This document shows positions 2,793-53,232 of a stretch of 64,000 bases of DNA, one piece after another. The position numbers and the translations under genes were made by a program. The stretch is from assembly GCA_951406725.2 (NCBI GenBank), contig OX597818.1, forward strand, positions 25,420,001 through 25,484,000, written 5' to 3'. How positions within the stretch are numbered: position 1 is the first letter of the stretch; every line of letters begins with the position of its first letter. The stretch comes from Octopus vulgaris (lineage: Eukaryota). The notes beneath the pieces were generated by a model. It was not told the DNA's origin, made no database searches, and saw only the letters and a list, made by a program, of their open reading frames with translations.

Positions 2793-4681
2793 GTAAGTAT
2801 TTTTCCTTTTTTTTTGTTTGTTTTAGTTACATATTAAAAAAAAATCTTATTTAAATACTGATAATATAAAATTATTTTTTTATCTATAGTTTGATACTTA
2901 GGCTTGACATTACTCCTAACAACTACATATTCTTAGAAAGTACAAGCTACGGCTGAATGCAAAAGAAATAATCTAAGAATTGCATAAAATTGAAGGTTCA
3001 TTAACCCTGCATTGTAAATAATAAGTGTATGCTGCTTACACTATATATGGCTGTCCAGTAAACTAGTCATAGGAATTTTGAGTGTGGTCTTATAATTTTG
3101 CCTGAACTACAAAGCATATTGGGATGTGCTTGCAGATAATTAGTGGTGGGAAATCCTCATTCAAAAATTTGTTTTTGTGTTGGAATGGGTTGAACAGGTC
3201 TACTGTTTGTTTTGTTCTTTTGTTGTCCAGAAGATAACAATTGCAGGTACATCGAGTGGGTTTGAGCAAGTGTGATGCATAGTTGGCTCTGATTATATTC
3301 ATATTGGAATCATTATTGCTATCATCCTTATTTTAATATGTTTTTCTGTACATTTATAGGTTTGCTTTAAGACACATTGTCATTTACTGAAATCTTTTGC
3401 TATCTCATCCATGAAACCTATTAATCCAGGAATCTGACCTTGTAATTTCTTTCTTTGCCTCTATTGATTTTGCTCTGCTCTAAATATTTCACTCACATTA
3501 TCAGCCTTCTTTCAACATGAACTATTCATCCATTTCTTACCAAAGCAAACCTCTATCTGACATAAATTAATAGATTCATTTAATGCCCAATTGCTCTCTC
3601 AGCTCACTTGTGCTCTTTTTAAAAAAATTTTTATTATGAAAGTTAACATTCAATAGATCATGTCCACCTTATTTCTCTCCAGCCTCTACAGATCATCCAC
3701 ATTCAATAACCTTGTCTCACTGCCATGCAGCATCACACTTTTATACATACTTCATATACTTTTTTTATACATGGAAAGTGAAACTCTTTGTAACTAACAG
3801 AGATAACTGTGACATGAACTTCATCCATCACTCTAGTCATGCTTTCGCTATCAGCTAAGTAACAGAAACTAGTCCTGTGTGTTCAGCAAGCAGTTCACGG
3901 ACCAATTTAATGGTGCTCTTACTGTTAACATTTAGCACTGGCTTTTTCAGCATACCAGCAGTACAACTGCATCTTCTATTCATTGTTTGCAATGGATAGA
4001 CAAGTTTCTGGCTACTCCCTTTCTGTATACTGAGCAAGACTACTTTTCAGATTGTATGTAAACACAGTACATAATTTTTCCATCTCTATCATCATTTATT
4101 AGTGTGCATGTATGTGTGTTGCAATGTAGACATCATCATTATCATCATACCATACATCTTTTTTCTATGTTTATATAGGCTGGATAGATTTGCAATATGC
4201 CAAACTTACCATACATCTGAAATCTGTGTGATTTGTAAAGTCCTCTTTTAGCAGATCCTTAATTTCTTTATCTGCTTCTATTATATGTACCTTAAGACAG
4301 TTCTATTGACATATTGTTTCTAACTACTGTATCGCATGAGGTTTGACTTAGGTTTTTAAAACTGGATGTCTTTCTTACTGTCAGTTACAACTTGTGCATT
4401 CTATGTAAGTATTTCATTATTCTAACTAAGACTAAGCAGGATGTTGTCATTTTGAATTTACTGAAATATTGTTTCATTTATTCAGACTTGATATCTGTCA
4501 AATTTGCAGTATGTAAATAATTGAGAATTTCTTCCTTTCTTTGTTTTTCTTTTTTTTTTTTTTTAGCTTCTTTGTGAAATATTTCTACAATTATTGTTTT
4601 TTCTATTTACACCGTTCACCTGAAAATTTCTTTGTATTTCACTTCATTGTATTAAATGTTATAAATTATTTATCTATTTAG

Positions 4682-38037: not shown

Positions 38038-38199
38038 TTGTTGCCTCCAGTAGCTCTAAGGCGAATATGAAGAGCTGTAATTCCAACTGTTTTGCACCTT
38101 TCTGCTACTTCTTGTGCAGCCAACATTGCAGCGTAAGGGGAAGCTTCATCTCGATCAGCCTTGACCTTCATTCCACCCGTCACACGAGCTATAGTTTCT
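38038..38199 (-). CDS. RPS14: RPS14 coding exon 2
   Basis: [53 protein letters not shown]; 162 nt. Confidence 0.98.
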
Positions 38200-38869
38200 C
38201 TGAAAAATATGAAAATGTACTGTAGGAACTATTTCAATAACAAGGCAGCATCAAACTCCAGTTTGTGACTGGAACAATGAAGTCAAACGAAATATACAAC
38301 AATGAAGATGATGTTCCAGATAGCACAGAAAAAATAAACTGATTTTTCTACATTTGTACTTTTGTTTAACATGAGAATCAAATGAATTTACACTCACATG
38401 GGGAATGCAAAGTGAATATTTTGCGACTTTTTGAGAATAAGATCATAAATTTTCATAGTTTTTTTTACTTATTTAAAAATAAGCATGAAAATTATTTGTA
38501 AGAAAGATAATTCTGATAATGCAACCACTTTCCTATCTAAGGGTTAATTTACCAACAAAATAAAAAACATGCTCAAGAATTTTATGTAATAGGCACTAGT
38601 TAAGATCCAGCAATCACTGTAAATCAATAGATAAATTCTGAGATATCAATGTACCACAATGCAAATAAATAGCTGCATCTGAGATTTCTTGTCAAGCCAC
38701 AAAATATCTCAAAGAATTATTTTATGACAAAATCTTATACTGTAAACTCAGAATAGACTATTTGGGAGTGTAGTAACAGAAAATTTTGCAAGCTTCTACC
38801 TACTAAGAATATGTGCAATGCAATTGAGTTGGAACAACACATTATTAGTTCGTTCATCATTGACAACAA

Positions 38870-40010
38870 TCAAGAACATCACAGAAGACAATGGGGCTCA
38901 GTGTGTTCGGCTGTGACTGATCCGTTTGATGCATGCTCAGAAGGCTCTGCAGGTCAGGAACTGTTGGTGTAGCTTCACCAGACAAGTTGGGTTTTTGCTC
39001 TTGATTCCAAAACTTATTCAGTGAAACCATGAATGTATGTTTTAAAGTGCCTTTTCTGTCCACCTTGCATGCACTTGCCTCCTGCCAGTTCACTGCAAAA
39101 GTCTTTTGGGGAGCTTCATTTCAGGCATTCAAACAAAGTGGCCAGTCCACTTGACTTTCGCTCTCCTCAGTAGAGTGTAAATATTTGGTATATCAACTCG
39201 AGAGAGGACCTCCACGCCTAGGACTTTTTCAACAGCTTTCTCAGGCAGTTTAGCTTTTTGACAGGATGTTTGTGGACCATCCAAGTCTTGCAAGCATACA
39301 TTTGCACAGACAGTACAACTACTTGGTACACAATCAACATGGTAGCTAGCCTAATGCCTCTCTTCTCTCACAATGATTCATGTAGCCACCCGAATGCTAA
39401 GTTTCCCATGGCAATGTGCATGTTGACTTCATTGTCAATGTTCACAGATCTGGAAAGTGTGCTGCCAAGGCACATGTACATAACCTTTCGGGTTCCCCTT
39501 GAACAGTGACTGTTGGCTCCATATATAACGTCTGAGTACTGATTGTGAGGCCAAAATTACTGCAGGCTGTGTAGTGTTGGAGAGAGCTGTGGGACAGTCA
39601 ACATGATCTTTATTCTGCACCAATTTCAGAAGGCCTCTGAGACCAGCTGTGAGGGCATTTGGAAGATCATGTTAAAAGTTCAGCAGCTTGATGAATTCAT
39701 TAGCATGGTGTGACAGTTCCATGATGGCATGCCCACTTGAGTATTGGGCAGTGGTGATTCTCCCAATGTGTTCCCAGTCACTAACAAAGTCAAGCAGGAC
39801 TGTGTATTCACAACTATGCTGTTTTCAGTGTTATTCGATGTTTTCTGCAGTAGCAAAACCACATCAAGATCACATTCAGGACGTGTAGCACTCGAGACAG
39901 GAGGCTACAAGCAAACACCAAAGTGGGAGAGAATTCTGTGCATGACTCTGCAGATGACTGCGCACTCAACATCACTACAGAGGCCCAAATGCAGCAGAGC
40001 GTTTTGATAA
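38870..40010. mobile_element. Old RTE/BovB-like LINE with 5' inversion
   Basis: Plus part FPVTNKVKQDCV...SADDCAL; minus part YL-GSTLSR...KWTGHFV-type C-terminal motifs. Confidence 0.7.
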
Positions 40011-40894
40011 CAGCAACTATTTTATATTTGTGCATTTTGTAAAATGTAAATTCAAGTTACATAATCCCTCTATATTTTTCTATATCCCAACTGTACTCTG
40101 ACCAACTCAACACAATTGTTGGCTAATATTGCAAGTTATGTCCCTTGCAGAAGTCATTCTAACATGCAACTTTAGTTACACAGACCTGGTTTCCTTCCTC
40201 TTCATTGACATACTTCATCTTGTTGCCAACTCATTTTTTCTAGGCATTTTTTATATGCCACTGGTTTACAAGAAAAACTATTGCTCAAGTGGTGTCAATG
40301 TGAAGACAATTTCTGTCCACAAAGTTTTGATGGACTGCAGGAAGCTATGAAAATTAGTTTGTTTCTATGACTTCATGCAAAAAAACTTATGAGTGATTTG
40401 CCTAAGTGCTACACAATGAAATCTAACTCAAACCACATGGTTTTGAAGTGAACTTGTCTCTTGGATTTTCTGTTACATGGACATTTATATAACACTACTC
40501 TGTAATTAATTATGGTGGACTGCTGAGTTCATAAGAGATTACCATGATAGCCACAGAATTCTGTGAATCAATCTCAAATCAGTGTATGTGTAATAAGAAG
40601 CTTACTTCCCAACCTCATGGTTCCAGACTCAGTCCCACTGCATGGCACATTGGACGAATGTCTTCTACCATAGACTTGTAAGTGGATTTGGTAGACAGAA
40701 ACTGGAAGAAGCCAGTTGTATATATGTATATATATATATATATATCTGTCTTTGTCTCATTAATACTTGACAACTGGTGTTAGTGTGTTTACATCCCTGT
40801 AACTTAGTGGCTCAGCAGGCTTCAAAAAAAGTTCTGGGGTCGATTCCACCCTTCAAGGTGATGCCAATATGGCCATAGTCAAATACTTAATCAT

Positions 40895-40938
<44 letters not shown>

Positions 40939-41983
40939 TATTTCATCGTATGTATATACACACACACACACATCCACAATTACATCTAGAGTAAATTCAC
41001 TTCAATATTACACTCAGTCCTTTCACACAACTTACCAAAACAAGTTCTGAGATAGGGTTAATTTTTTGTTTCAATTTTTAACATTGATCTTCATTTTCAC
41101 TTATTCTCAAAGTGAGGGGAAAGGGATAAGTTCTTAAGTCTTTTTTCCATACAGGGAAAGAAAAGAAAAAAAACCTATTTGGTGAGCTTTGATTTTTTAA
41201 GCATCAAGTTACTTCAGTTTTAAAACAGATAAGGAAAGACAAATGTCAGAGGAAGACAAACAACAACCAATAAAAAAAAAGATAAAAAGCTATGAAAACC
41301 AAAGATATCTGAAGAGGTTGTACAAATTTCCTACCAAATATAATAAAACTCAGTAATTAACATAATAGCTTACGCAAGGCCATATGAAAGACAGAACATC
41401 ACAAAGCAAAAACATTATGAATATGAAGAACCTAGAACATACAAAATAAAAAAGGCAAAATTTAAAAAAGAAGAATCATGCAAAAATATAGGTAAATAAT
41501 TGCCACATCATTATATCTATAACCACTATTCCATGCTTGCATAGGTCAAACAATTCAATGAAGCAGATTTTCTATGGCTGGATGCATATCCTGTCATCAA
41601 ACCACACCTGTTTGCAAGCATAGGTTTTCCTTATGGTGGGACATGTTTTCACAGGTAGTTGGAAACAAAGCACACCATTTTTATGATGATGACATTTACA
41701 ACCATCAGGTAATGTCAAGACAATGGAACACATGCACAATGAGCTTCTTTCAGTTTCTATCTCTTAAATCTAACCATAGGTGTTTGGTCAACCCAAGACT
41801 ATAGCTAATGACACTTGCCCAAGGTTGTTATACAGTAAGACCAAACCCAGAAACATGGTATATTCAGCAGTGACATTGGTTGGATTTTATATGATTAGTA
41901 AGTGAATGCATCATGTTTTGTGTGTACATACAAATACAAAGGCAAAAAGCAGCCAAATTCGAGGGCAATCACCAAAGGTTTTA

Positions 41984-42571
41984 CTGTAAAAACTCATGTA
42001 ATTTGCATACCTGTGTAATTTATGCAGGTGATTTTTAGGATATGTAAAATTCACACCCAAAAGTTTTCAGAATTGCCGGCCAGGGAGAAAAGGTTTTCAA
42101 TTTATTTGTATTTAGCATAATTTCACTTATGATTAGATATTATTAAACTTTATTTTACATTTCTTGTCAAGAGACTAAGTCTGATCTTTAGCATACTGTT
42201 GTATGCCTTCTCAAATCACTATCATAGGAAATCATCAACATCATTTAACCTCCACTTTCCATGCTGGCATGGGTTGGACTGTTTGACTGAGGAATGTGAT
42301 TACCAGCAATGTAATGGTTTTAGTAAATTTATAGAGAAAAAGGAAGCATTATACCACCCAACATAAATAAAGTCAGCTTCATTATATTTAAGCCCTTATT
42401 TTTTCTGTAAAAACCTACTCTGACATTAAATGAGTCAACTTTTGGTACAAATGTTTGTTTTGTAAATCTTTATGAAAAAAAAAGAAGAAAAAAAGGCCCC
42501 AAAAAATTTGTTCATGTAATTTACGTACTCCTAAATTTTATTTTTGTGTTAAATTACATGGCTTTTTATGG
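41984..42571. mobile_element. Tc1/mariner-superfamily MITE (TA TSD); partial inverted copy ~300-514
   Basis: TA-CTGTAAAAACTCATGTAATTT ... AAATTACATGGCTTTTTATGG-TA; internal sequence shared with 300-514. Confidence 0.7.
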
Positions 42572-43383
42572 TATATGTAAACTTAAGCAAATGGTATGGA
42601 GAAGAGAGGTAGTGATGCAATGGTTCCAAATGTTAACTAGCGCCAGTTTGGTACTTCCTAAATTTGTGTCTAGAGTGGATAATTTGGGATAGTATTGCAC
42701 AAGCTAAAAACTTTGATTTTCCAATATTGGCAAACCATGTAGAGAACAGGTTTCAGACAACTTGTAGGTGCAAAAAATAGCTTCAGTGTATTTAGTGCAG
42801 GTGTTGCAATGTTTTTAAAGGTGGAAAATACAAAAACACATGTTGTGTTTTCTCAAGTACCCATAGAAAGCGCATTAATTCATTTTGCAACTGACAAAGC
42901 TACAATTAAGCTGCTGATTATTCTTACTACTTTGTTACAAAAGTATATATGTTGCACGAAGGATAACAATGTACCAAGCCACTGTGGCACAGTTATCTGC
43001 ATGCGCACAGATATATGTGGAGCCTGCAAGTCACAACAGGTCACCCAAAGACAGCAACCTCAATTAAACAGTAATACAGGGTAGTGTTATTACAAGAAAA
43101 TATACCCAGCGCAAAATGTAAAACAAAGCCAGCAGGTTTTGTGCTATATGCAAGATGATGCAAGCAATGAAACTTGCTCAACCCATGTAAGAATGGAAAC
43201 TTAAGCATAAAACTAATTCCTTACAAAACATCTTGAAGTGTCAGTCTGTGCTTAACTCAAAACCAACAGCAAACTTTAAAGATGCAGAAATTGTAAGTAG
43301 CATGTTTATCCAACATGGGAAAGTGGTAATATTCATAAATATCAACAGTAATGCAATCCCATTAGAATGTAAGTTAAGTTTTA

Positions 43384-44560
43384 TGAGGGTGGGCCGAAAA
43401 GTACATAGGCTGACTATAAAGGAGTGATGATGAAGCTATAAAATCTTACAAGCATTAATTTCAACCGTCTTATTAATAACTGCAGTTTCCTTCCAGATCA
43501 GTGCTTTTCAACAATTTTGCTGGAGCGGAACCCCAAGGAAACATTCCACTGGCTCAAGGAACCCCTGTGCAATAATTTAATAGTCTTATGCACACATATC
43601 TGCACAGGAGAATTTAAAATTACTGCCGATTTTAGCAGTTTTGTAACTTCTTGCGGAACCCCGGTTGAAAACCACTGTTCCAGATAAACAGTTGTAAAAA
43701 GAAGTCTTCAAAAGTAACTAGTAGTGACTTCTCTTGAAAATGAATAAAATGTGACACCGTGGTGTTATCAAGTACCTGCAGAAAAAGGACATTTGTGCCA
43801 ACATGATTGCTACATCAGGGGATAATGCTCCAGCTTTATCAACAGTGCAAAAGTAGGCAGGTGAATTTAGGGGGTACAGGGAAAATCTTGAAGATGACCT
43901 AAGGTTTGGACATTCTGCAACTGCCACCACATGATGATAGATGACAGGCAATTGACAATAAATCAAACAGCCAATCTATTAGCATTTCTTGTGAGTTGAG
44001 ATAATAAACAACCCTACTTGGTAGTTGCCATGTCTTTTGACAATTATTCAAGACTGTTTCAAGCAGATCCAGGATGTGTTGGCCTCTTTACTTTGAACCA
44101 GAGACAATCCATGCAGTGGAAACACCCCCTCCCATCTGCCCCAAAAGGCCAGTCATTCCACCTGCAGGGGTGTTGGGCTTCAGTTTTTTGGGATGCAAAA
44201 GGCATTGTGCTTATTGACTATCTTCAAAAGGGCCACACCATCAAAAGAGTATTATGCCAACTTGTTGCAGCAGTAATGGAAGGTCATCAAGACCAAATGC
44301 CCAGGAAAATTGAACAAAGGGTTCTTGTATCATCAGGACAATGCTCCATCACACAAATCCTTGGTTTCAATGGCTGTTGTGCATAACTGCAGCTTTGAAC
44401 AGGTTGACCACTCCCCCTATTTTGATTTGGTCCCATCTGACTACCACCTGTTACCCAACATGAAAAAACACTGGGAACCAGTATCAGTGATATGTCTACT
44501 GTTGATGACTTTTTTGACTGACAGGATGAAAACTTCATGAACGGTATCCAAGCACAAATT
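43384..44560 (+). mobile_element. Degraded mariner transposon
   Basis: QSMQWKH, SVFWDAKGIVLIDYLQKG, HQDNAPSH and HSPYFDLVPSDY (from HPPYSPDLAPSDY) motifs. Confidence 0.85.
43499..43677. mobile_element. hAT MITE nested in the mariner
   Basis: CAGTGCTTTTCAAC...GTTGAAAACCACTG TIRs; perfect 8-bp TSD TTCCAGAT (43491-43498, 43678-43685). Confidence 0.88.
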
Positions 44561-44747
44561 TCAAGACTATTTTTAAAAAATTGAAGTTACTAACAAATAT
44601 TGATACTCTTCTTGAGCCTGATTAATTCAAAACAATGTCAGAGCATTGCATTTGACAAAGTAAGCTTAATGCCAAAGGGCTAAAGAAATGGAAATTGTGC
44701 TTAGACCAACTCAAGCATGTTGGTGATTCTCTTCACTTTCAGTTTTC

Positions 44748-45014
44748 AGCATTCTTTCGATATAACCTGGCAAAGTCAAAACATTTCACTTCAGGTATTT
44801 CTATGGTATACAGTTCGATTCTGTTTTCTGCTTGGAAATTTGCAGATTTTACATAACACACATGAAACAGGTAAGAACAAATATGCAAGGCTTTTTTTCA
44901 AGTTTAAAATGAGAGACATTGCTGGCATAATTTCATTATATCTATACTCCACAACCCACGGAAATACCCAAAGTGAAATGCTTTGATTTTGTCGAGTTAT
45001 ATCGAAAGAATGCC
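44748..45014. mobile_element. MITE M1 (GGCATTC...GAATGCC TIRs, 8-bp TSD; Merlin-like)
   Basis: Long imperfect TIRs; TSD CAGTTTTC at 44740-44747 and 45015-45022. Confidence 0.85.
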
Positions 45015-45053
45015 CAGTTTTCTGTTGGCCATAAATCTCTTAACACCTAATTA

Positions 45054-45132
45054 CAGGACATCAGCTCTCCAAGGTGATTGGACCTATCATTGAGAAACAT
45101 AAGGTACCAAGTTGTTGTCATCATATGTCCTG
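45054..45132 (-). ncRNA. SNORD55: C/D-box snoRNA, SNORD55/U55(U39)-like, copy 1
   Basis: CAGGACA-t-ATGATGA(C box)CAAC...TCACCTTGGAGAG-CTGA(D box)-TGTCCTG. 7-bp terminal stem; 12-nt guide complementary to conserved 28S UCUCCAAGGUGA; sense strand in the RPS14 intron. Family name is from recalled similarity (ATGATGACAAC...ACCTTGGAGAGCTGA). Confidence 0.85.
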
Positions 45133-45352
45133 ATGCATGGCCTTCAATAAATATCTAGACAAAATAGTTTAAAAAATACTATGCAACCAAATGATACAAA
45201 CTCAATGTTCGTAAACTATTAAAGCAACCTATATAGACTTGAGTGTCAACTTTTACACTCGCATAATTTCGTTTCGTTGGGATGACTTTTTACAGAACTA
45301 TTATCAGTGCATACACACAACTAGCAAAGTCGACAGGGAAATGTAGAATTAA

Positions 45353-45651
45353 CCCTTTCATTACCAAACCGCCTGAAAAAAATTTTGGTTCATGTGACCA
45401 AGCCCCCTCCCCCCAACCGTCCATAATCACCTATTCATATTTAACCCTTTAGCATTCAGATTATTCTGTAAAATGTAAAGCTTATGTATTCACACCATGT
45501 AAAATTAATCTTGCATCATTTCATGGCTTTGAGATTTCAATGATGTGATTATTTTTAAAATGACACAATAAGGTAGCTATGAATGACCATATCTGACTAG
45601 TTTGAACATAAAATAGGTAGAATATTTTGGCCGGTTTAAACACTAAAAGGG
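45353..45651. mobile_element. TTAA-specific (piggyBac-type) non-autonomous element; duplicate at ~48732-49033
   Basis: TTAA-CCCTTT...AAAGGG-TTAA; the empty TTAA site is visible in the third repeat unit (49628-49631). Confidence 0.8.
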
Positions 45652-45656
45652 TTAAG

Positions 45657-45911
45657 GGCATTCTTTCGATATAACGTGACAAAAAACATTTTACTTCAGG
45701 TATTTCCGTGGAAGCAAATAACAGTTCGATTCTGTTTTCTGCTTGGAATGCAGATCTTATATACACACAATACAGGTAAGAACAAATATGCAAGGCTTTT
45801 TTAAAATGAGAGACATTGCTGGCATAATTTCATTATATCTATACTTCACAACCCACGGAAATACCCAAAGTGAAATGCTTTGATTTTGTCGAGTTATATC
45901 GAAAGAATGCC
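45657..45911. mobile_element. MITE M2 (chimeric M4/M1 copy)
   Basis: Left flank GAATTAAG (split by a TTAA element), right flank CAGTTTTC. Confidence 0.85.
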
Positions 45912-45950
45912 CAGTTTTCTGTTGGCCATAAATCTCTTAACACCTAATTA

Positions 45951-46029
45951 CAGGACATCAGCTCTCCAAGGTGATTGGACCTATCATTGAGAAACATAAG
46001 GTACCAAGTTGTTGTCATCATATGTCCTG
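45951..46029 (-). ncRNA. SNORD55: SNORD55-like snoRNA, copy 2
   Basis: Appears identical to copy 1 (offset 897 nt). Confidence 0.85.
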
Positions 46030-46186
46030 ATGCATGGCCTTCAATAAATATCTAGACAAAATAGTTTAAAAAATACTATGCAACCAAATGATACAAACTC
46101 AATGTTGGCAAACTATTAAAGCAACCTACATAGACTTGAGTGTCAACTTTTACACTCGCATAATTTCATTTCGTTGGGATGACTTA

Positions 46187-48656
46187 GTTAGTTAGTTAGT
46201 TAATTTGGCTCATAAGCAAATAGCAAGGCCATGTAGGGGGACATGGAGTTAAGTACAGGGTGGTGTTCATGTAAAGAGTTCAGGCCACTTGAGGTCCAGG
46301 GAGGCTTTGAACAAAGCGGTCGTCGGCATCTTCACCATCTCGTCTGGCAGCTTGTTCCACGGATCCGCAACCCGGACGGAGAAAGCTCCTCTCCTTCGAT
46401 TGAGATGAAATCGTCGCAGGTAGAGCTTTTCGGAATGACCCCGCAGCAGGAGTGAAGAACAGCTCTTTCGAGAGGTTACACTTCCCGCTTATGATGTTGT
46501 GGGCGAGAATGAGATCACCACGGCGGCGGCGTTTTTCAAGAGAACAAAGGTCGAGCGTCCTCAGCCTTTCTTCGTAGGACAAATTTTTGAGACCATGAAC
46601 CATGCGGGTAGCCAGCCTCTGGACTCTTTCGAGGTGCTGTATGTCTTTGAGGAGATAAGGAGAAGAGGCTTGAATCCCATACTCCAATATGGGTCTCACC
46701 AGCGTGACATAGAGTGGCAGGAATATGGCTGCTGTGAGCATTCCGAATGAACGTCGAATCAAAAACAGAATTCCGCGCGCTTTGTTGGCAGCATGGACGC
46801 ACTGGGCCGAAGGCGAAAAGGAGGAATCCACCAAGATACCCAGGTCCTTTACCTGATCGGTCCTCTCCAGCAGCAGACGACCCGGCTCGAAATCAAGTTG
46901 AGTTGCAGGAGTAGAGCCGACAGGCAGATGACAGCACTTTGATACGTTCAGACACAGGTCCCAATTGTTAGACCACTTCCAAATTTGGTGGAGGCATCGA
47001 CGAAGATCCTCTATACTACCGCGAGGAGCGACCAGTTTGATATCGTCGGCAAATAGAAGGGTGTGTTGCGTGAGGTCGTCGGGCAAGTCATTTATGAAGA
47101 CTAAGAACAACAAGGCCCAAGCACTGAACCTTGAGGCACGCCACTGCTCGCACTGGAGACGTCGGACCGCGAACCATTAACTTGAACTTGGAAGGAGCGA
47201 TCTGAGAGGAAGGCACCAACCCATCGTACAATATCCGGATGGAAACTATATGCTTGAAGCTTGACAAGTAGTAGGCGGTGGTTTACCGAGTCAAAAGCTT
47301 TGGCAAAGTCCAATAAAACGATGTCAACAGTATCACTATCATCGAGGATGCGCGTCACCAATTCTTCCATTACTAGTAAGTTGGTCAAGCATGATCTCTT
47401 CGGCACGAAGCCGTGTTGGGAATCAGTGATCGAGGCTGTGTTTAGGAGGTGGAGCATCATACTTTTCTTAAGGATGGTTTCGAACATCCTGCTGATTATT
47501 GATGTAAGGGAAACCAGTCGGTAGTTAAGCGGGTCTTCGCGGCTCCCTTTCTTGAAAATTGGGCAGATTATCGCTGTTCTCCAGTCTGCAGGTATAACAC
47601 CCGTCGCCAACGACATATTGAATAGTCGTGTTAAGGGCTCGCAGATGACCGGAGCCAACGCTTTGATAACCCGTGGGTGTATGCCGTCAGGGCCGTGACC
47701 CTTGTTGACATCGAGGCCTTGAATAACACGCTTGACTTGGTCCCGCGTGATGATCAATCGAAGCATTGGAGGTACCGATCTATCAAATGGAGGGGGTTCA
47801 CGACCATCATCTGGTTTGAAAATAGTTGAAAAAGCCTCGGCAAATAATTGACTCTGTTGATAAGGGTCCTCAATCGATACGCCTGTTGAGTCTACCAACG
47901 TTGCAATCTGGTTGTTCAAGCGGGAATTCCGCTGGACATGGGCAAAGAAGGTTTTTGGATTGCTACTGGCATTTGCCGCGATTTTGTATTCATAACTGAA
48001 GCGTTCTTTCTTTTCAATTTTCAAGGCTCGGTCTCGTTGAGTTTTGTACACCTCAAAAGCTGCAGTCGAATCCAGCCCAAGCAATATCTCTGAGTCGACG
48101 TTCTCGTTCAACCTTCTTCGTCACCCAGGGCTTGTGTTTCTTCCTCTTGGGAAGTCCAACGGGAACTGCCTGGTCAGTCAAACAGATTACATATGCTTTG
48201 AGGGATGACCATAGTTCGTCAACTGAGGACAACGTCATCAGGGAACGCCAGTCCAGAAGCGCAGAAGCCTCGGTTAGAATTTCAAGATTAATTGCAGAGA
48301 AGACTCTACGTGGCAGCGAAGTAATCGTGGGCGTGGAAAAAGTTGTGTGCATGACGAACTTCAGGACCGCATGATCACTCTTGGCAAGAGGGGCGCACAC
48401 AGATACGTCTGACACTGATCTTGGATAGCGGGAGAATACCAGATCTAGCATAGATGGCTGCTGCCCAGACCGATATTCAACATGTTGCAATAGAAAACAA
48501 TCTTCAGCCACGTCAAGAAGGGCCTGGCCGAACCGGGAAGATGTTGTACAAATTGATGCGGGCCAATCGATCGTGGGAGCGTTGAAGTCGCCTAGTACCA
48601 AGCAGTCATGCGAAGCTGAAACGAATCTTATCGCTTCGAGTAGATGAGCATATATT
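46187..48656 (-). mobile_element. CR1-clade LINE, 5'-truncated, frameshifted ORF2 (APE end + RT)
   Basis: VLGDFNAP, LDLVF, KGHGPDGIHP, QHGFVPKRSCLTNLL, LDFAKAFDSVNH, GVPQGSVLGP, LFADDIKL, LERVQRLATR across ORFs 48053-48601, 47101-48111 and 46280-47113; (TAAC)n tail; TSD GATGACTT(A) at 46178 and 48657. Confidence 0.93.
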
Positions 48657-49038
48657 GATGACTTATATTTATGGAACTATTATTAATGCACACACACGAA
48701 TAGAAAAGTCGACAAGGAAATGTAGAATTAACCCTTTCATTACCAAACCGCCTGAAAAAAATTTTGGTTCATGTGACCAGCCCCCCCCCCCACACCAACC
48801 GTCCATAATCACCTATTCATATTTAACCCTTTAGCATTCAGATTATTCTGTAAAATGTAAAGCTTATGTATTCACACCATGTAAAATTAATCTTGCATCA
48901 TTTCATGGCTTTGAGATTTCAATGATGTGATTATTTTTAAAATGACACAATAAGGTAGCTATGAATGACCATATCTGACTAGTTTGAACATAAAATAGGT
49001 AGAATATTTTGGCCGGTTTAAACACTAAAAGGGTTATG

Positions 49039-49293
49039 GGCATTCTTTCGATATAACGTGACAAAAAACATTTTACTTCAGGTATTTCCGTGGAAGCAAA
49101 TAACAGTTCGATTCTGTTTTCTGCTTGGAATGCAGATCTTATATACACACAATACAGGTAAGAACAAATATGCAAGGCTTTTTTAAAATGAGAGACATTG
49201 CTGGCATAATTTCATTATATCTATACTTCACAACCCACGGAAATACCCAAAGTGAAATGCTTTGATTTTGTCGAGTTATATCGAAAGAATGCC
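49039..49293. mobile_element. MITE M3 (duplicate of M2)
   Basis: Near-identical to M2, same hybrid flanks. Confidence 0.85.
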
Positions 49294-49332
49294 CAGTTTT
49301 CTGTTGGCCATAAATCTCTTAACACCTAATTA

Positions 49333-49411
49333 CAGGACATCAGCTCTCCAAGGTGATTGGACCTATCATTGAGAAACATAAGGTACCAAGTTGTTGTCAT
49401 CATATGTCCTG
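49333..49411 (-). ncRNA. SNORD55: SNORD55-like snoRNA, copy 3
   Basis: Appears identical to copy 1. Confidence 0.85.
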
Positions 49412-49632
49412 ATGCATGGCCTTCAATAAATATCTAGACAAAATAGTTTAAAAAATACTATGCAACCAAATGATACAAACTCAATGTTCGTAAACTATTA
49501 AAGCAACCTATATAGACTTGAGTGTCAACTTTTACACTCGCATAATTTCGTTTCGTTGGGATGACTTTTTACAGAACTATTATCAGTGCATACACACAAC
49601 TAGCAAAGTCGACAGGGAAATGTAGAATTAAG

Positions 49633-49903
49633 GGCATTCTTTTGATATAACTCGACAAAATCAAAACATTTCACTTCGGGTATTTCCATGGAAGCAAACA
49701 ACAGTTCGATTGTTTTCTGCTTGGAAATTTGCAGATTTTACATACACACATGAAATAGGTAAGAACAAATATGCAAGGCTTTTATTCTTCAAGTTTAAAA
49801 TGAGACATTGATGGCATAATTTCATTATATCTATACTCCACAACCCATGGAAATACCCGAAGTGAAATGTTTTAATTTCGTCAAGTTATATCAAAAGAAT
49901 GTC
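49633..49903. mobile_element. MITE M4
   Basis: TSD GAATTAAG at 49625-49632 and 49904-49911. Confidence 0.85.
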
Positions 49904-51137
49904 GAATTAAGGTTCAAGGTTTCTATAAACCCCTTTACTACTTTTTCTGTTGAAATAAACTTTCTTTGCTTTAATTCAATGAAGAAAAAAAGTCATTAAA
50001 CTGATGTTTGGAACATTATTAAACATGAAATTTTGAAAGATAATTTAAATTACATAAAAAAACAGAAAGTTTGTGTCATATAACCAGTCTCGGCTGCTAA
50101 GTAAAAAGAGTTAAATTATCCTCTTTCTATTCAAATGACAAATTAAATCGTGAAAAATTATAGCTAACTCAAAATCAAGAACCCATTTAGATGTGAAATT
50201 ACACAAAAGCCATTAAAATATCACCGAGACAACTGTTCAAATCAACATAAAACGGTCCAGCTTATTTTGGCTTTTGAGCACTGGTCCCAAATTATGATAC
50301 CAACCCAGCCAAAACCGCCTCTGCCTCTGTAGTACAAATGTCTTGTTTTCATAAGTATTGAATTAAAATCTTTCACCAAACCTTTGTCACAATTTATGTT
50401 CCTAACACTAGCTTAATGATAACTAAGTTCTTTTATTAAATTCTTTGTTCTATTTAAAATTAATTGAATGAAACAGAGCATCTCAAAATAAATACGGTAA
50501 CGAAAGGGTTAAGAAAACCTGACCACAACCAAATGGATAGACTGCACATGACTCAACAGACTGACTTGATATAACTCATGATATATAAATAAGTAATCAC
50601 TTTACCCAGTTTATCAAATCCCTGAGAAATTTCTGAATTCAAAAGGTATTAAACAATCACATTTTCAATTCTGTTGCTAATATGAAGTGTGGATGTACCA
50701 CTACAAATTCTCCGCGTTTTTACCCATGACGACATCAGCAAGTATTGTGATTCTTTAGGCCTTCCCTACTCTCAACAGGTTGGAAGCCATGAATTACCAA
50801 CGAGATCTTTTTTTCGCTCTCCTTTAAGAATTCACTGTATCACCAGTGTTAATGTTATCAGCCATACGCTATTTCAGGTTAGACTTCAAGGAAAAAGGTT
50901 ATGGAAGTGGTGATTGATGGCTGACACGGCTTTATTGTAAATTTTGGGATGGTTCGCGATATAATTGTGCACACGCACAAAAACCAAAAGTATTCGGACC
51001 ATGAAGGTTTGAAAATTCAGTTTCGAAATATCATCTTCTGAATACGTAAGTATTATTCTGGGATTTAAAATCACGAAGATTCCAAAAATGAGGCCTCCGA
51101 AATGTATTTTCTCGTTATAAACTTAGGAATTCAAAAG

Positions 51138-51202
51138 AAGACATCAGCTCTCCAAGACATCGCAAAACACAAGGTATCAAGGTTGTTGTCATCACATATC
51201 TT
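51138..51202 (-). ncRNA. SNORD55: SNORD55-like snoRNA, divergent short paralogue (copy 4)
   Basis: AAGATA-t-GTGATGA CAACAACCTTGATACCTTGTGTTTTGCGATGTCTTGGAGAG CTGA-TGTCTT; boxes and terminal stem intact; ~60 nt downstream of the exon donor. Confidence 0.78.
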
Positions 51203-51262
51203 GATTTACAAGCACTAACAATATCTTGACGTAAAAAATATATATACAAAGAAATCACTTAC

Positions 51263-51411
51263 TTGCCTGAAAGGTCAGTAACATGCACAAATGTATCATT
51301 GAAACTAGCAAAAATGTGGGCTACGCCGAAAACATTCTCTCCTTCCAGCACTTGTGGGCCGAGCGATACTTGCTCTTGCTGCTGTTGCGTCTTTCCTTTA
51401 CGTGGAGCCAT
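51263..51411 (-). CDS. RPS14: RPS14 first coding exon
   Basis: [49 protein letters not shown](K). Acceptor lies 1 nt before the ATG. The four exons sum to 456 nt = 151 aa + stop. Confidence 0.98.
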
Positions 51412-52055
51412 TCTGAAAGCAGATTTCATTACAATAAGGCGGGTGTTAGGAAACAGAAATAATAAACATTTGCATTGAATAAGGGATAACCAAATCAGAG
51501 TATTAGTTTCTCAATAAATTTCCCGATGATGTGTTTCACATACTGGTGAATATACAGTTCACCAACAGAATTACAAAACATGTGGAACAAAGATTGACTT
51601 AATCTAACATCAGTTTTGATTAGCACAAAATAGAATATTAATATCTGGCGGGCAATTCCCTCGGTATATTTCATTAGTAGACACCCTATAACACTGGCGA
51701 GTTAAATGGACATAAAGTTGTTTAAAAATATGCCTTATCTTCAAAAACTAAGTTAAATTTCAAATCACACGATAAAAAATACCATCACAACTTAAAATTT
51801 ACATAACACTATAATACACTAAAGGTTAAAATAAATCTAAATAACCAAGAACGTGTAGAAATAAAATCAATTTAAAATTAGACCATCATGTGTTTGGAGC
51901 AAAAAAACAACAATTTCTAGCAGTGAGATACGCAAAAGTACTTTATTCAGTGAGCAATTAGTTACAGTGTATATTAAAAATATAATTTATAATTTAAATG
52001 TGTTAAATAAAATAAGATGAAAGCAGATTAAATACAGCAAACAAAAAACACATAC

Positions 52056-52088: not shown

Positions 52089-52200
52089 TAGTAGATGAGA
52101 ACGAGAACTTACGAGGTCCTGTAAATCTCGTCAGAAAGTGAGATTTTGTCATCTTCCGGTTTGATGAGAAAAAAAAGGTGGGTTGGGGATAGTAGAAGTA
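52089..52200. promoter_or_regulatory. Putative bidirectional promoter RPS14/ZSWIM8 with ETS-type site (CTTCCGG, ~52153-52159)
   Basis: CpG-containing, TE-free segment between divergent genes; CCGGAAG on the minus strand. Confidence 0.55.
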
Positions 52201-53039: not shown

Positions 53040-53232
53040 ATGCACTTTATGTTTGACTGGGAGACGGAAGCCGATCATATCTCATTTGATGACAGTGACC
53101 GTTTCGAGGAGGATTCTCTGTGCTCGTGGAACAGCGAGCCCGAGAGTCTGTGCAACAACTGGAGAGGATGGAAGAGGCAAAATGGAGGCCAGGCTTTTCC
53201 AGCGCAGCAGCAGCAACAGCAGCGAACCACTG
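53040..53232 (+). CDS. ZSWIM8: ZSWIM8 (Dora/EBAX-1) first coding exon
   Basis: MHFMFDWETEADHISFDDSDRFEEDSLCSWNSEPESLCNNWRGWKRQ matches the characteristic ZSWIM8 N-terminus (SFEDSDRFEEDSLCS..SE.ESLC.NWRGW); phase-1 donor G/GTAAGA. No further exon recognised in the window. Confidence 0.92.

Follow-up and report, generated by a model that had tools for sequence, protein, structure and literature searches.

Unequal exchange between copies of transposable elements is known, in the excerpts of PMC5932611, from elements standing in tandem at one site and from exchange between long terminal repeats. Duplication in cis of small nucleolar RNA (snoRNA) genes is likewise well described, and its breakpoints are not traced in the passages of PMC2653536. 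The SNORD115/116 and SNORD113/114 clusters are presented in part of PMC11028025 as orphan snoRNAs in repeated introns of imprinted long non-coding RNAs (lncRNAs), with up to hundreds of copies, and human SNORD55 is given in an excerpt of PMC8677024 as the guide for 28S Cm2791. Here we describe a locus in a 64-kb stretch of the Octopus vulgaris genome (contig OX597818.1, positions 25,420,001–25,484,000; this whole stretch is called the window and coordinates are counted from its first letter) in which the breakpoints of a snoRNA duplication are traced to miniature inverted-repeat transposable elements (MITEs). An array spanning about 5 kb within intron 2 of the minus-strand gene RPS14 (uS11) holds four MITEs in the same direction, three identical copies of a C/D snoRNA, two TTAA inserts and one young long interspersed nuclear element (LINE). 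Recombination between the outer MITEs probably gave an old two-unit duplication, which gene conversion and a recent unequal crossover then probably turned into the three-unit form. The rearrangement mechanisms themselves are textbook ones and the cargo, a snoRNA, is unusual; the flanks of the MITEs and the nested inserts, along with a conversion tract and contigs from outgroups, allow the history to be put in order, one of its steps being hidden from the target-site duplications (TSDs) alone. A literature search, confined largely to papers outside subscription journals, returned no report of a MITE-bounded snoRNA duplication. An earlier note, made from the letters of this DNA, had proposed MITE-driven amplification of an snoRNA in a ribosomal protein intron. 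Its placement was right, its observation is partly confirmed and its interpretation partly supported.

The swap of target sites is seen by comparing the outer and inner MITEs. M1 (44748–45014, + strand; 6.1% from the family majority) has CAGTTTTC on both sides (44740–44747, + strand, and from 45015), and M4 (49633–49903, + strand; 5.9% from the family majority) has GAATTAAG on both sides (from 49625, and 49904–49911, + strand), as the earlier note had read them. The inner copies M2 (45657–45911, + strand) and M3 (49039–49293, + strand) are identical to each other. Their right flanks are the TSD of M1 (at 45912 and 49294), as had been claimed; the intact GAATTAAG claimed for their left side is not there, the TSD of M4 being interrupted at its TTAA so that it reads GAATTAA, about 303 bp of insert and G. 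The octamer CAGTTTTC is not rare by itself (six occurrences in the window against 3.6 expected), and it is the placements that count, four of the six adjoining MITE ends. The core of unit 1 (45015–45352, + strand) consists of this TSD, the snoRNA (copy 1, 45053–45133, - strand), a spacer and an end segment called Eb; the core of unit 3 (49294–49632, + strand) is identical, with snoRNA copy 3 at 49332–49412 (- strand) and the TSD GAATTAAG behind Eb. Unit 2 has snoRNA copy 2 (45950–46030, - strand) and a diverged end segment, Ea (48657–48731, + strand; 84% to Eb). As M2 and M3 carry the left flank of M4 (Ea or Eb with GAATTAA..G) together with the right TSD of M1, two MITE insertions followed by recombination is the best reading of the swapped flanks.

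Genome-wide, all 40 candidates scored, out of 648, are full-length matches to the MITE family. For polarisation we used 29 family copies, which were taken as the best matches to M4 and are hence a biased sample. The TSD of the family is 8 bp long, with at least 7 of 8 bases matching in 23/29 copies and 8/8 in 15/29. The array copies are short (255–271 bp) and non-coding, with terminal inverted repeats of 57–60-bp arms (about 58 bp in M1) that are 84–95% complementary, and we take them to be of hAT type, a rule of thumb applied to the TSD length alone. The chimeric nature of M2 and M3 is not supported by the motif GGAAGCAAA from which the earlier note deduced it: most of the family has this ancestral motif, and at this place M1 alone carries a 6-bp deletion. 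Against the 29 copies, derived bases common to M1 and M2 alone are found at columns 32, 58, 256 and 267, together with a 2-bp insertion; M2 and M4 alone have one in common (column 80, adjoining the deletion of M1), and so do M1 and M4 alone (column 68). The sharing of derived bases between M2/M3 and M1 extends even into the 5′ half, and the comparison of the four copies does not present the inner ones as M4/M1 mosaics. The 5′ half of M2 was also considered as a separate subfamily or insertion and rejected, its best genome match being 88% among the 40 scored of 498 candidates. The exchange is, to judge by these comparisons, recorded by the flanks only; a switch at the extreme 5′ end would leave no mosaic signal in M2 and M3. 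Over their 5′ halves, M1, M2 and M4 stand at roughly the same distance from one another (11/138, 12/143 and 12/152 differences), from which the duplication would be about as old as the MITE insertions; a switch at or near the MITE 5′ end, of about that age, fits the data.

Comparison of the units brings out the step that the TSDs do not record. Unit 2 is the same as units 1 and 3 up to 46106; beyond this point it has a spacer end with four substitutions (46107–46185, + strand; the Aa type, that of units 1 and 3 being Ab), the LINE and then Ea. Units 1 and 3 both end in Eb. From mid-MITE to the TTAA, the 3′ part of M1 plus unit 1 differs from the 3′ part of M3 plus unit 3 at 1 of 450 positions, whereas the neighbouring 5′ half has 11 differences (Fisher test, p about 3e-6). 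The segments in front of the second and the first TTAA insert, Ea and Eb (68–71 bp), differ at 9 of 65 bases and by a 3-bp indel, against at most two substitutions in the adjacent block of about 755 bp formed by TTAA insert (T), inner MITE (Mx) and the part of the unit before Ea or Eb (A; p about 3e-9); a poly-C tract and a single base are all that distinguishes the two copies of this block. As a plain double duplication predicts the same end segment before both TTAA inserts, the route of two such duplications told in the earlier note, which had overlooked Ea as well as a fourth snoRNA copy, fails. A conversion or double-crossover step is required, because units 1 and 3 are near-identical while the segments before the inserts differ. 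The simplest account would be an old two-unit array Aa-Ea-T-Mx-Ab-Eb, conversion of its first unit by the second on some chromosomes, followed by crossing over of such a chromosome with one left unconverted.

The "TTAA element" of the earlier note turned out to be two elements, and its placement after the first exchange was correct, since the insert is absent at M4. Ta1 (45349–45440, + strand) comprises 92 bp from the left end of a longer TTAA-flanked element that was broken off at an internal TTAA; Tb1 (45441–45655, + strand) is a complete, nested 215-bp TTAA-flanked high-copy MITE. The second copy of this composite (Ta2 plus Tb2) occupies 48728–49037 (+ strand), and its right TTAA, left of M3, reads TTAT. 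The remainder of the parent element of Ta is missing from the insert (45349–45655, 48728–49037), the right part of this outer element perhaps having been deleted between similar right ends. At about 50300–50512 there is a very high-copy TTAA-ended element, with contig depth in the millions, that is related to the truncated element of the array.

The LINE was correctly assigned to unit 2. It is 5′-truncated, lies on the host-gene strand and hence in sense orientation in the RPS14 intron (46186–48656, - strand), and is bordered by an 8-bp TSD, GATGACTT, at 46178 and 48657. Endonuclease and reverse transcriptase domains are spread over three frames, the tail is a microsatellite, and the GC content is about 48% inside a 33% GC region. 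Identity to 39 other copies scored is 97–98%, a single 14-bp gap accounting for most of what differs, and substitution divergence from some siblings is below 1% (7/1342, 17/2231). The family comprises 1,281 candidates with near-identical copies and, judged by this near-identity, is recently active. That the LINE had shielded Ea from conversion was considered and rejected, as the LINE is too young.

In the history that we propose, two MITEs would have inserted 338 bp apart, one on either side of the snoRNA, as their separate TSD pairs indicate. A misaligned exchange at or near the MITE 5′ end would have yielded M1-Aa-Ea-Mx-Ab-Eb-M4, with Mx carrying the swapped flanks. Two TTAA elements would next have entered the copied TSD left of Mx, and the units would have diverged by about 8–14%. 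In organism A, the source of two of the public runs described below, the second unit would have overwritten the first over about 400–450 bp, with heterology bounding the tract on both sides, and a crossover of a converted with an unconverted chromosome just before 46107 would have produced three units. The LINE would have entered the Aa unit recently, either before or after this last event.

Public contigs bear on the number of units. Four of 24 listed public runs were placed on 48560–51500, as contigs: X1 and X2 (organism A), X5 (organism B) and X11 (organism D); X1 may be the source of the assembly itself, and hence non-independent. Relative to the long unique flank, the depth of the snoRNA-bearing contig is 2.27 in X1, 2.38 in X2, 2.13 in X5 and 2.0–2.9 in X11. 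A single-unit assembly artefact, named in the earlier note as what would undo its reading, predicts a depth of 1 and no branch, and was rejected: the depth is near 2 or higher in each of the four runs, accompanied by breaks or by continuations unlike M4. The snoRNA-bearing contig stops at 49549 in X1, X5 and X11, one base before the Aa/Ab variant. Eb continues unbroken into M4 in X5 and X11; it stops at 49631 in X1, and in X2 it is followed by 38 letters unlike M4. These breaks match the simulated branch points of the two-unit ancestor and of the converted chromosome, the simulation predicting Eb into M4 without a break for the two-unit ancestor and the pattern of X1 and X2 for an Eb-to-insert junction. 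The depths of X5 (2.0–2.1 and 0.9) fit the two-unit ancestor closely, and the Eb depth of X11 (1.7–2.4) does not. X5 has two of the four unit-2 alleles, and X11 holds an Ea piece of which the placed part starts at the TSD of the LINE, which suggests a LINE-free allele. Two units are old and shared. The contig junctions, differing between runs, suggest copy-number variation.

Three units are weakly favoured, but unproven. Measured against the long flank, X1 gives A 2.27, Eb 1.68 and Mx 1.70, values closest to those of a heterozygote for three and two units (2.26–2.38, 1.5–2 and 1.5). Several points weigh against this. The depth of a contig does not give the number of copies; the two contigs of the flank are unequally deep (72.9 vs 50.9 in X1, 14.1 vs 8.3 in X2), and with the shorter flank as reference the ratios of X1 become 3.26, 2.40 and 2.44. 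In the Mx contig of X1 three letters do not match, and words common to the MITE family may have raised its depth. At 48695 no contig of X1, X2 or X5 covers Ea, which we do not take as absence, and a LINE–Ea junction was not seen in the contigs of the four runs. The 38 letters of X2 and the LINE-free state of X11 are deduced from coordinates rather than read. Neither a read nor a contig spanning the array was found in the four runs, which leaves three units in one molecule unproven.

The rival that survives best accepts the old two-unit duplication and the conversion as real and takes the third unit for an assembly merge of two alleles; we consider it unlikely, while giving it more weight than any other alternative. 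The alleles would be M1-Ab-Eb-T-Mx-Ab-Eb-M4 and M1-Aa-LINE-Ea-T-Mx-Ab-Eb-M4, joined within the 760-bp near-identical block, and their merge would yield the three-unit sequence letter for letter. The few differences between the T-Mx-A blocks are allele-like, and the A:Eb depth of X1 is 1.36, next to 1.25–1.33 under a merge and 1.38–1.5 for a three-unit homozygote. The assembly also holds near-identical tandems, as one elsewhere on C5 shows (9.2 kb, 99.9% identical). A merge, however, predicts an Mx-specific depth of 1.0, and about 1.7 times the long flank is seen in X1 and X2; moreover, an assembly of 2.8 Gb in 227 contigs suggests reads longer than the 5-kb array. The C5 tandem itself (C5:56,345,000–56,356,400; identity compared over 2.2 kb) has the same MITE and TSD in each copy at a spacing of about 9.2 kb, and is a recent duplication or an assembly duplicate. 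The MITE pair in it was rejected as a second case of swapped TSDs, both members having the same intact TSD inside the larger tandem.

Somewhat less likely again is a transposase route instead of ordinary unequal crossover, in which one MITE gave rise to the second by a local hop and a break at one MITE was mended with the wrong copy of the sister chromatid as template. hAT elements show local hopping. M1 and M4 have four non-majority bases in common, against a maximum of three in any of 406 family pairs, and for this reason they may not be independent insertions, which tells against our first step and makes doubtful the independence that the earlier note had assumed. The age of the duplication deduced from the three equidistant 5′ halves and the position of the switch at or near the MITE end also agree with this route. 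However, some of the shared bases stand in columns of CpG decay or polymorphism (family counts 4/29, 4/29, 0/29 and 14/29), the 29 comparison copies are the best matches to M4, and exchange inside the array could equally have produced them. The product is the same as that of recombination between the outer MITEs, so that the sequence cannot separate the two, which are not mutually exclusive. The history exactly as the earlier note told it (duplication, TTAA insertion, second duplication and LINE, with no conversion) agrees with how the TSDs are laid out and with the point at which the TTAA insert came in, but is very improbable, as it predicts that the end segments of units 1 and 2 are the same where those of units 1 and 3 are and that of unit 2 is 84% identical, as the LINE (less than 1% from some siblings) is too young to explain 14% drift beside it, and as an Ea-type segment already present in organism D (X11) argues against a local sequence error.

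The three array copies of the snoRNA are identical to one another, as the earlier note had it; their description as SNORD55-like needs qualification, because the Rfam cut-off is missed. Nowhere in the window does an Rfam family attain its gathering score, RF00157 (SNORD39/55, gathering 35 bits) included. The best match is snoZ101 (RF00358), with 37.7 bits against a gathering score of 44 (E 3e-4); three overlapping matches of the same clan sat behind it and were not displayed. We take the clan, CL00057, to be that of SNORD39/55. A genome search with SNORD39 gave one weak unrelated match (E 5.5), and this locus is not among the 57 scored of 96,642 candidates. All four copies, counting the fourth paralog described below, have a box C (RUGAUGA) close to their 5′ end and a box D (CUGA) close to their 3′ end, and the terminal stem has 6/6 pairs in both paralogs, with one compensatory and one one-sided change between the two sequences. 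C/D guides typically comprise 10–21 nt of rRNA complement directly before box D or D′; the guide beside box D here, the same as that of the snoZ101 consensus, forms 11 perfect Watson-Crick pairs with the 28S of this genome in all four copies fetched. The D+5 rule places the methylation target relative to box D, and the snoRNA is thus predicted to guide 2′-O-methylation of the first C of CC in 28S UCUCCAAGGUG, which we take to be the equivalent of human Cm2791. Two tests do not favour this assignment: the stem test from two sequences is no better than shuffled sequence (247/500), and the energy of the guide duplex alone is unexceptional (14/100 shuffles as good). For the internal C′/D′ boxes only degenerate candidates are found, and the paralog is without 13 nt of that part. 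On the boxes and the guide, the array snoRNA likely works like SNORD55.

The fourth paralog (51136–51204, - strand) lies about 60 nt inside the 5′ end of the intron, is not MITE-bounded and predates the array; besides it and the array copies, the window has no strong match. It is 13 nt shorter, keeps both boxes and the stem, has a guide of 12 pairs including three G-U, and scores 18.6 bits with snoZ101. The middle of the array snoRNA (45078–45097, - strand) pairs at 16 of 17 positions with a conserved 28S segment, at about position 4188 of the match, and an extra 28S pairing is possible: 2/100 shuffles are as good, this being one of four segments tested, compared with 8/100 for the 5′ segment. 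The version of the paralog has 12 pairs with three G-U, and 81/100 shuffles are as good. A DNA search for copies elsewhere in the genome, insensitive in that it missed the local paralog too, found only the three array copies. Weak C/D-like matches in the upstream intron at 51518–51658 (own model E 0.42; snoR124 E 6.2) are probably chance, and matches of MIR821 on the MITEs (36–40 bits against 249) were dismissed as hairpin artefacts.

The host intron (38200–51262, about 13.1 kb) is flanked by coding exons with GT/AG ends: the first coding exon of RPS14, upstream of the intron (51263–51411, - strand), and the next one (38039–38199, - strand). Both match Pfam Ribosomal_S11 (PF00411; E 1.4e-5 and 2.1e-13). 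Read by eye, what is likely a non-coding first exon of RPS14, its start rich in pyrimidines, lies at about 52110–52160 (- strand), and less than 1 kb from it a divergently oriented exon-like stretch at 53040–53232 (+ strand) suggests a bidirectional promoter. Decayed transposon-like stretches stand in the intron at about 44070–44545 and about 38900–40000, which look by eye mariner-like and LINE-like.

With four snoRNA copies in one intron of an essential ribosomal protein gene, the locus departs from the usual layout of one snoRNA per intron; unannotated exons between the copies are not excluded. It raises the question by what route a single intron would release four snoRNAs. On the transcript strand each MITE folds into a long hairpin, some 38 nt downstream from a snoRNA (z = -7.7), as is expected of any MITE. 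It is conceivable, and in our view improbable, that the MITEs multiplied the snoRNA and now process it, RNase III-type cleavage of the hairpins freeing several snoRNAs per intron. This would be an animal analogue of yeast Rnt1 processing, made from transposons. Without such cleavage, the product of the intron would be a long RNA of roughly 6 kb, capped by snoRNAs and with many double-stranded hairpins. As polycistronic yeast snoRNAs require Rnt1 cleavage, in the excerpts of PMC10557570, additional copies in the DNA do not necessarily supply more guide. The copy-number gain claimed in the earlier note thus holds for DNA only, and four copies per intron need not raise the level of mature snoRNA. 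The locus offers a direct test of whether extra intron copies raise the guide dose, are wasted or become an invertebrate sno-lncRNA.

The layout of at least two snoRNAs per intron is that from which snoRNA-ended RNAs arise after exonucleolytic trimming, as in the sno-lncRNAs of the excerpted PMC11028025 and PMC10557570; those are mammalian and have two snoRNAs, whereas here, known from DNA alone, there are four with MITE hairpins between them. Like snoZ101, the octopus snoRNA has its guide adjoining box D and pairs perfectly to the conserved 28S site; unlike it, the score stays below gathering, the 5′ part of the consensus with the D′ box being poorly matched. With SNORD115/116 and SNORD113/114 the locus shares a C/D array shaped by non-allelic recombination and gene conversion (PMC11028025, in part), but here an rRNA guide is concerned, in two to three units within one intron of a housekeeping gene. 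As in snoRNA cis-duplication, an intronic guide snoRNA was duplicated locally inside its host gene, with boxes and guide conserved; the paralogs of the part of PMC2653536 at hand usually lie in different or adjacent introns and no breakpoint mechanism is named there, whereas at this locus four copies share one intron and the breakpoints are in MITEs. Finally, as in the tandem transposable element arrays of the PMC5932611 excerpts, copies in the same direction allow out-of-register exchange, the junction keeps the target-site record and the array can expand or contract. Unlike in those cases, the two MITEs stand apart and enclose 338 bp of host DNA that includes an RNA gene, and it is because the parent MITEs sat at different sites that the inner ones have mismatched flanks.

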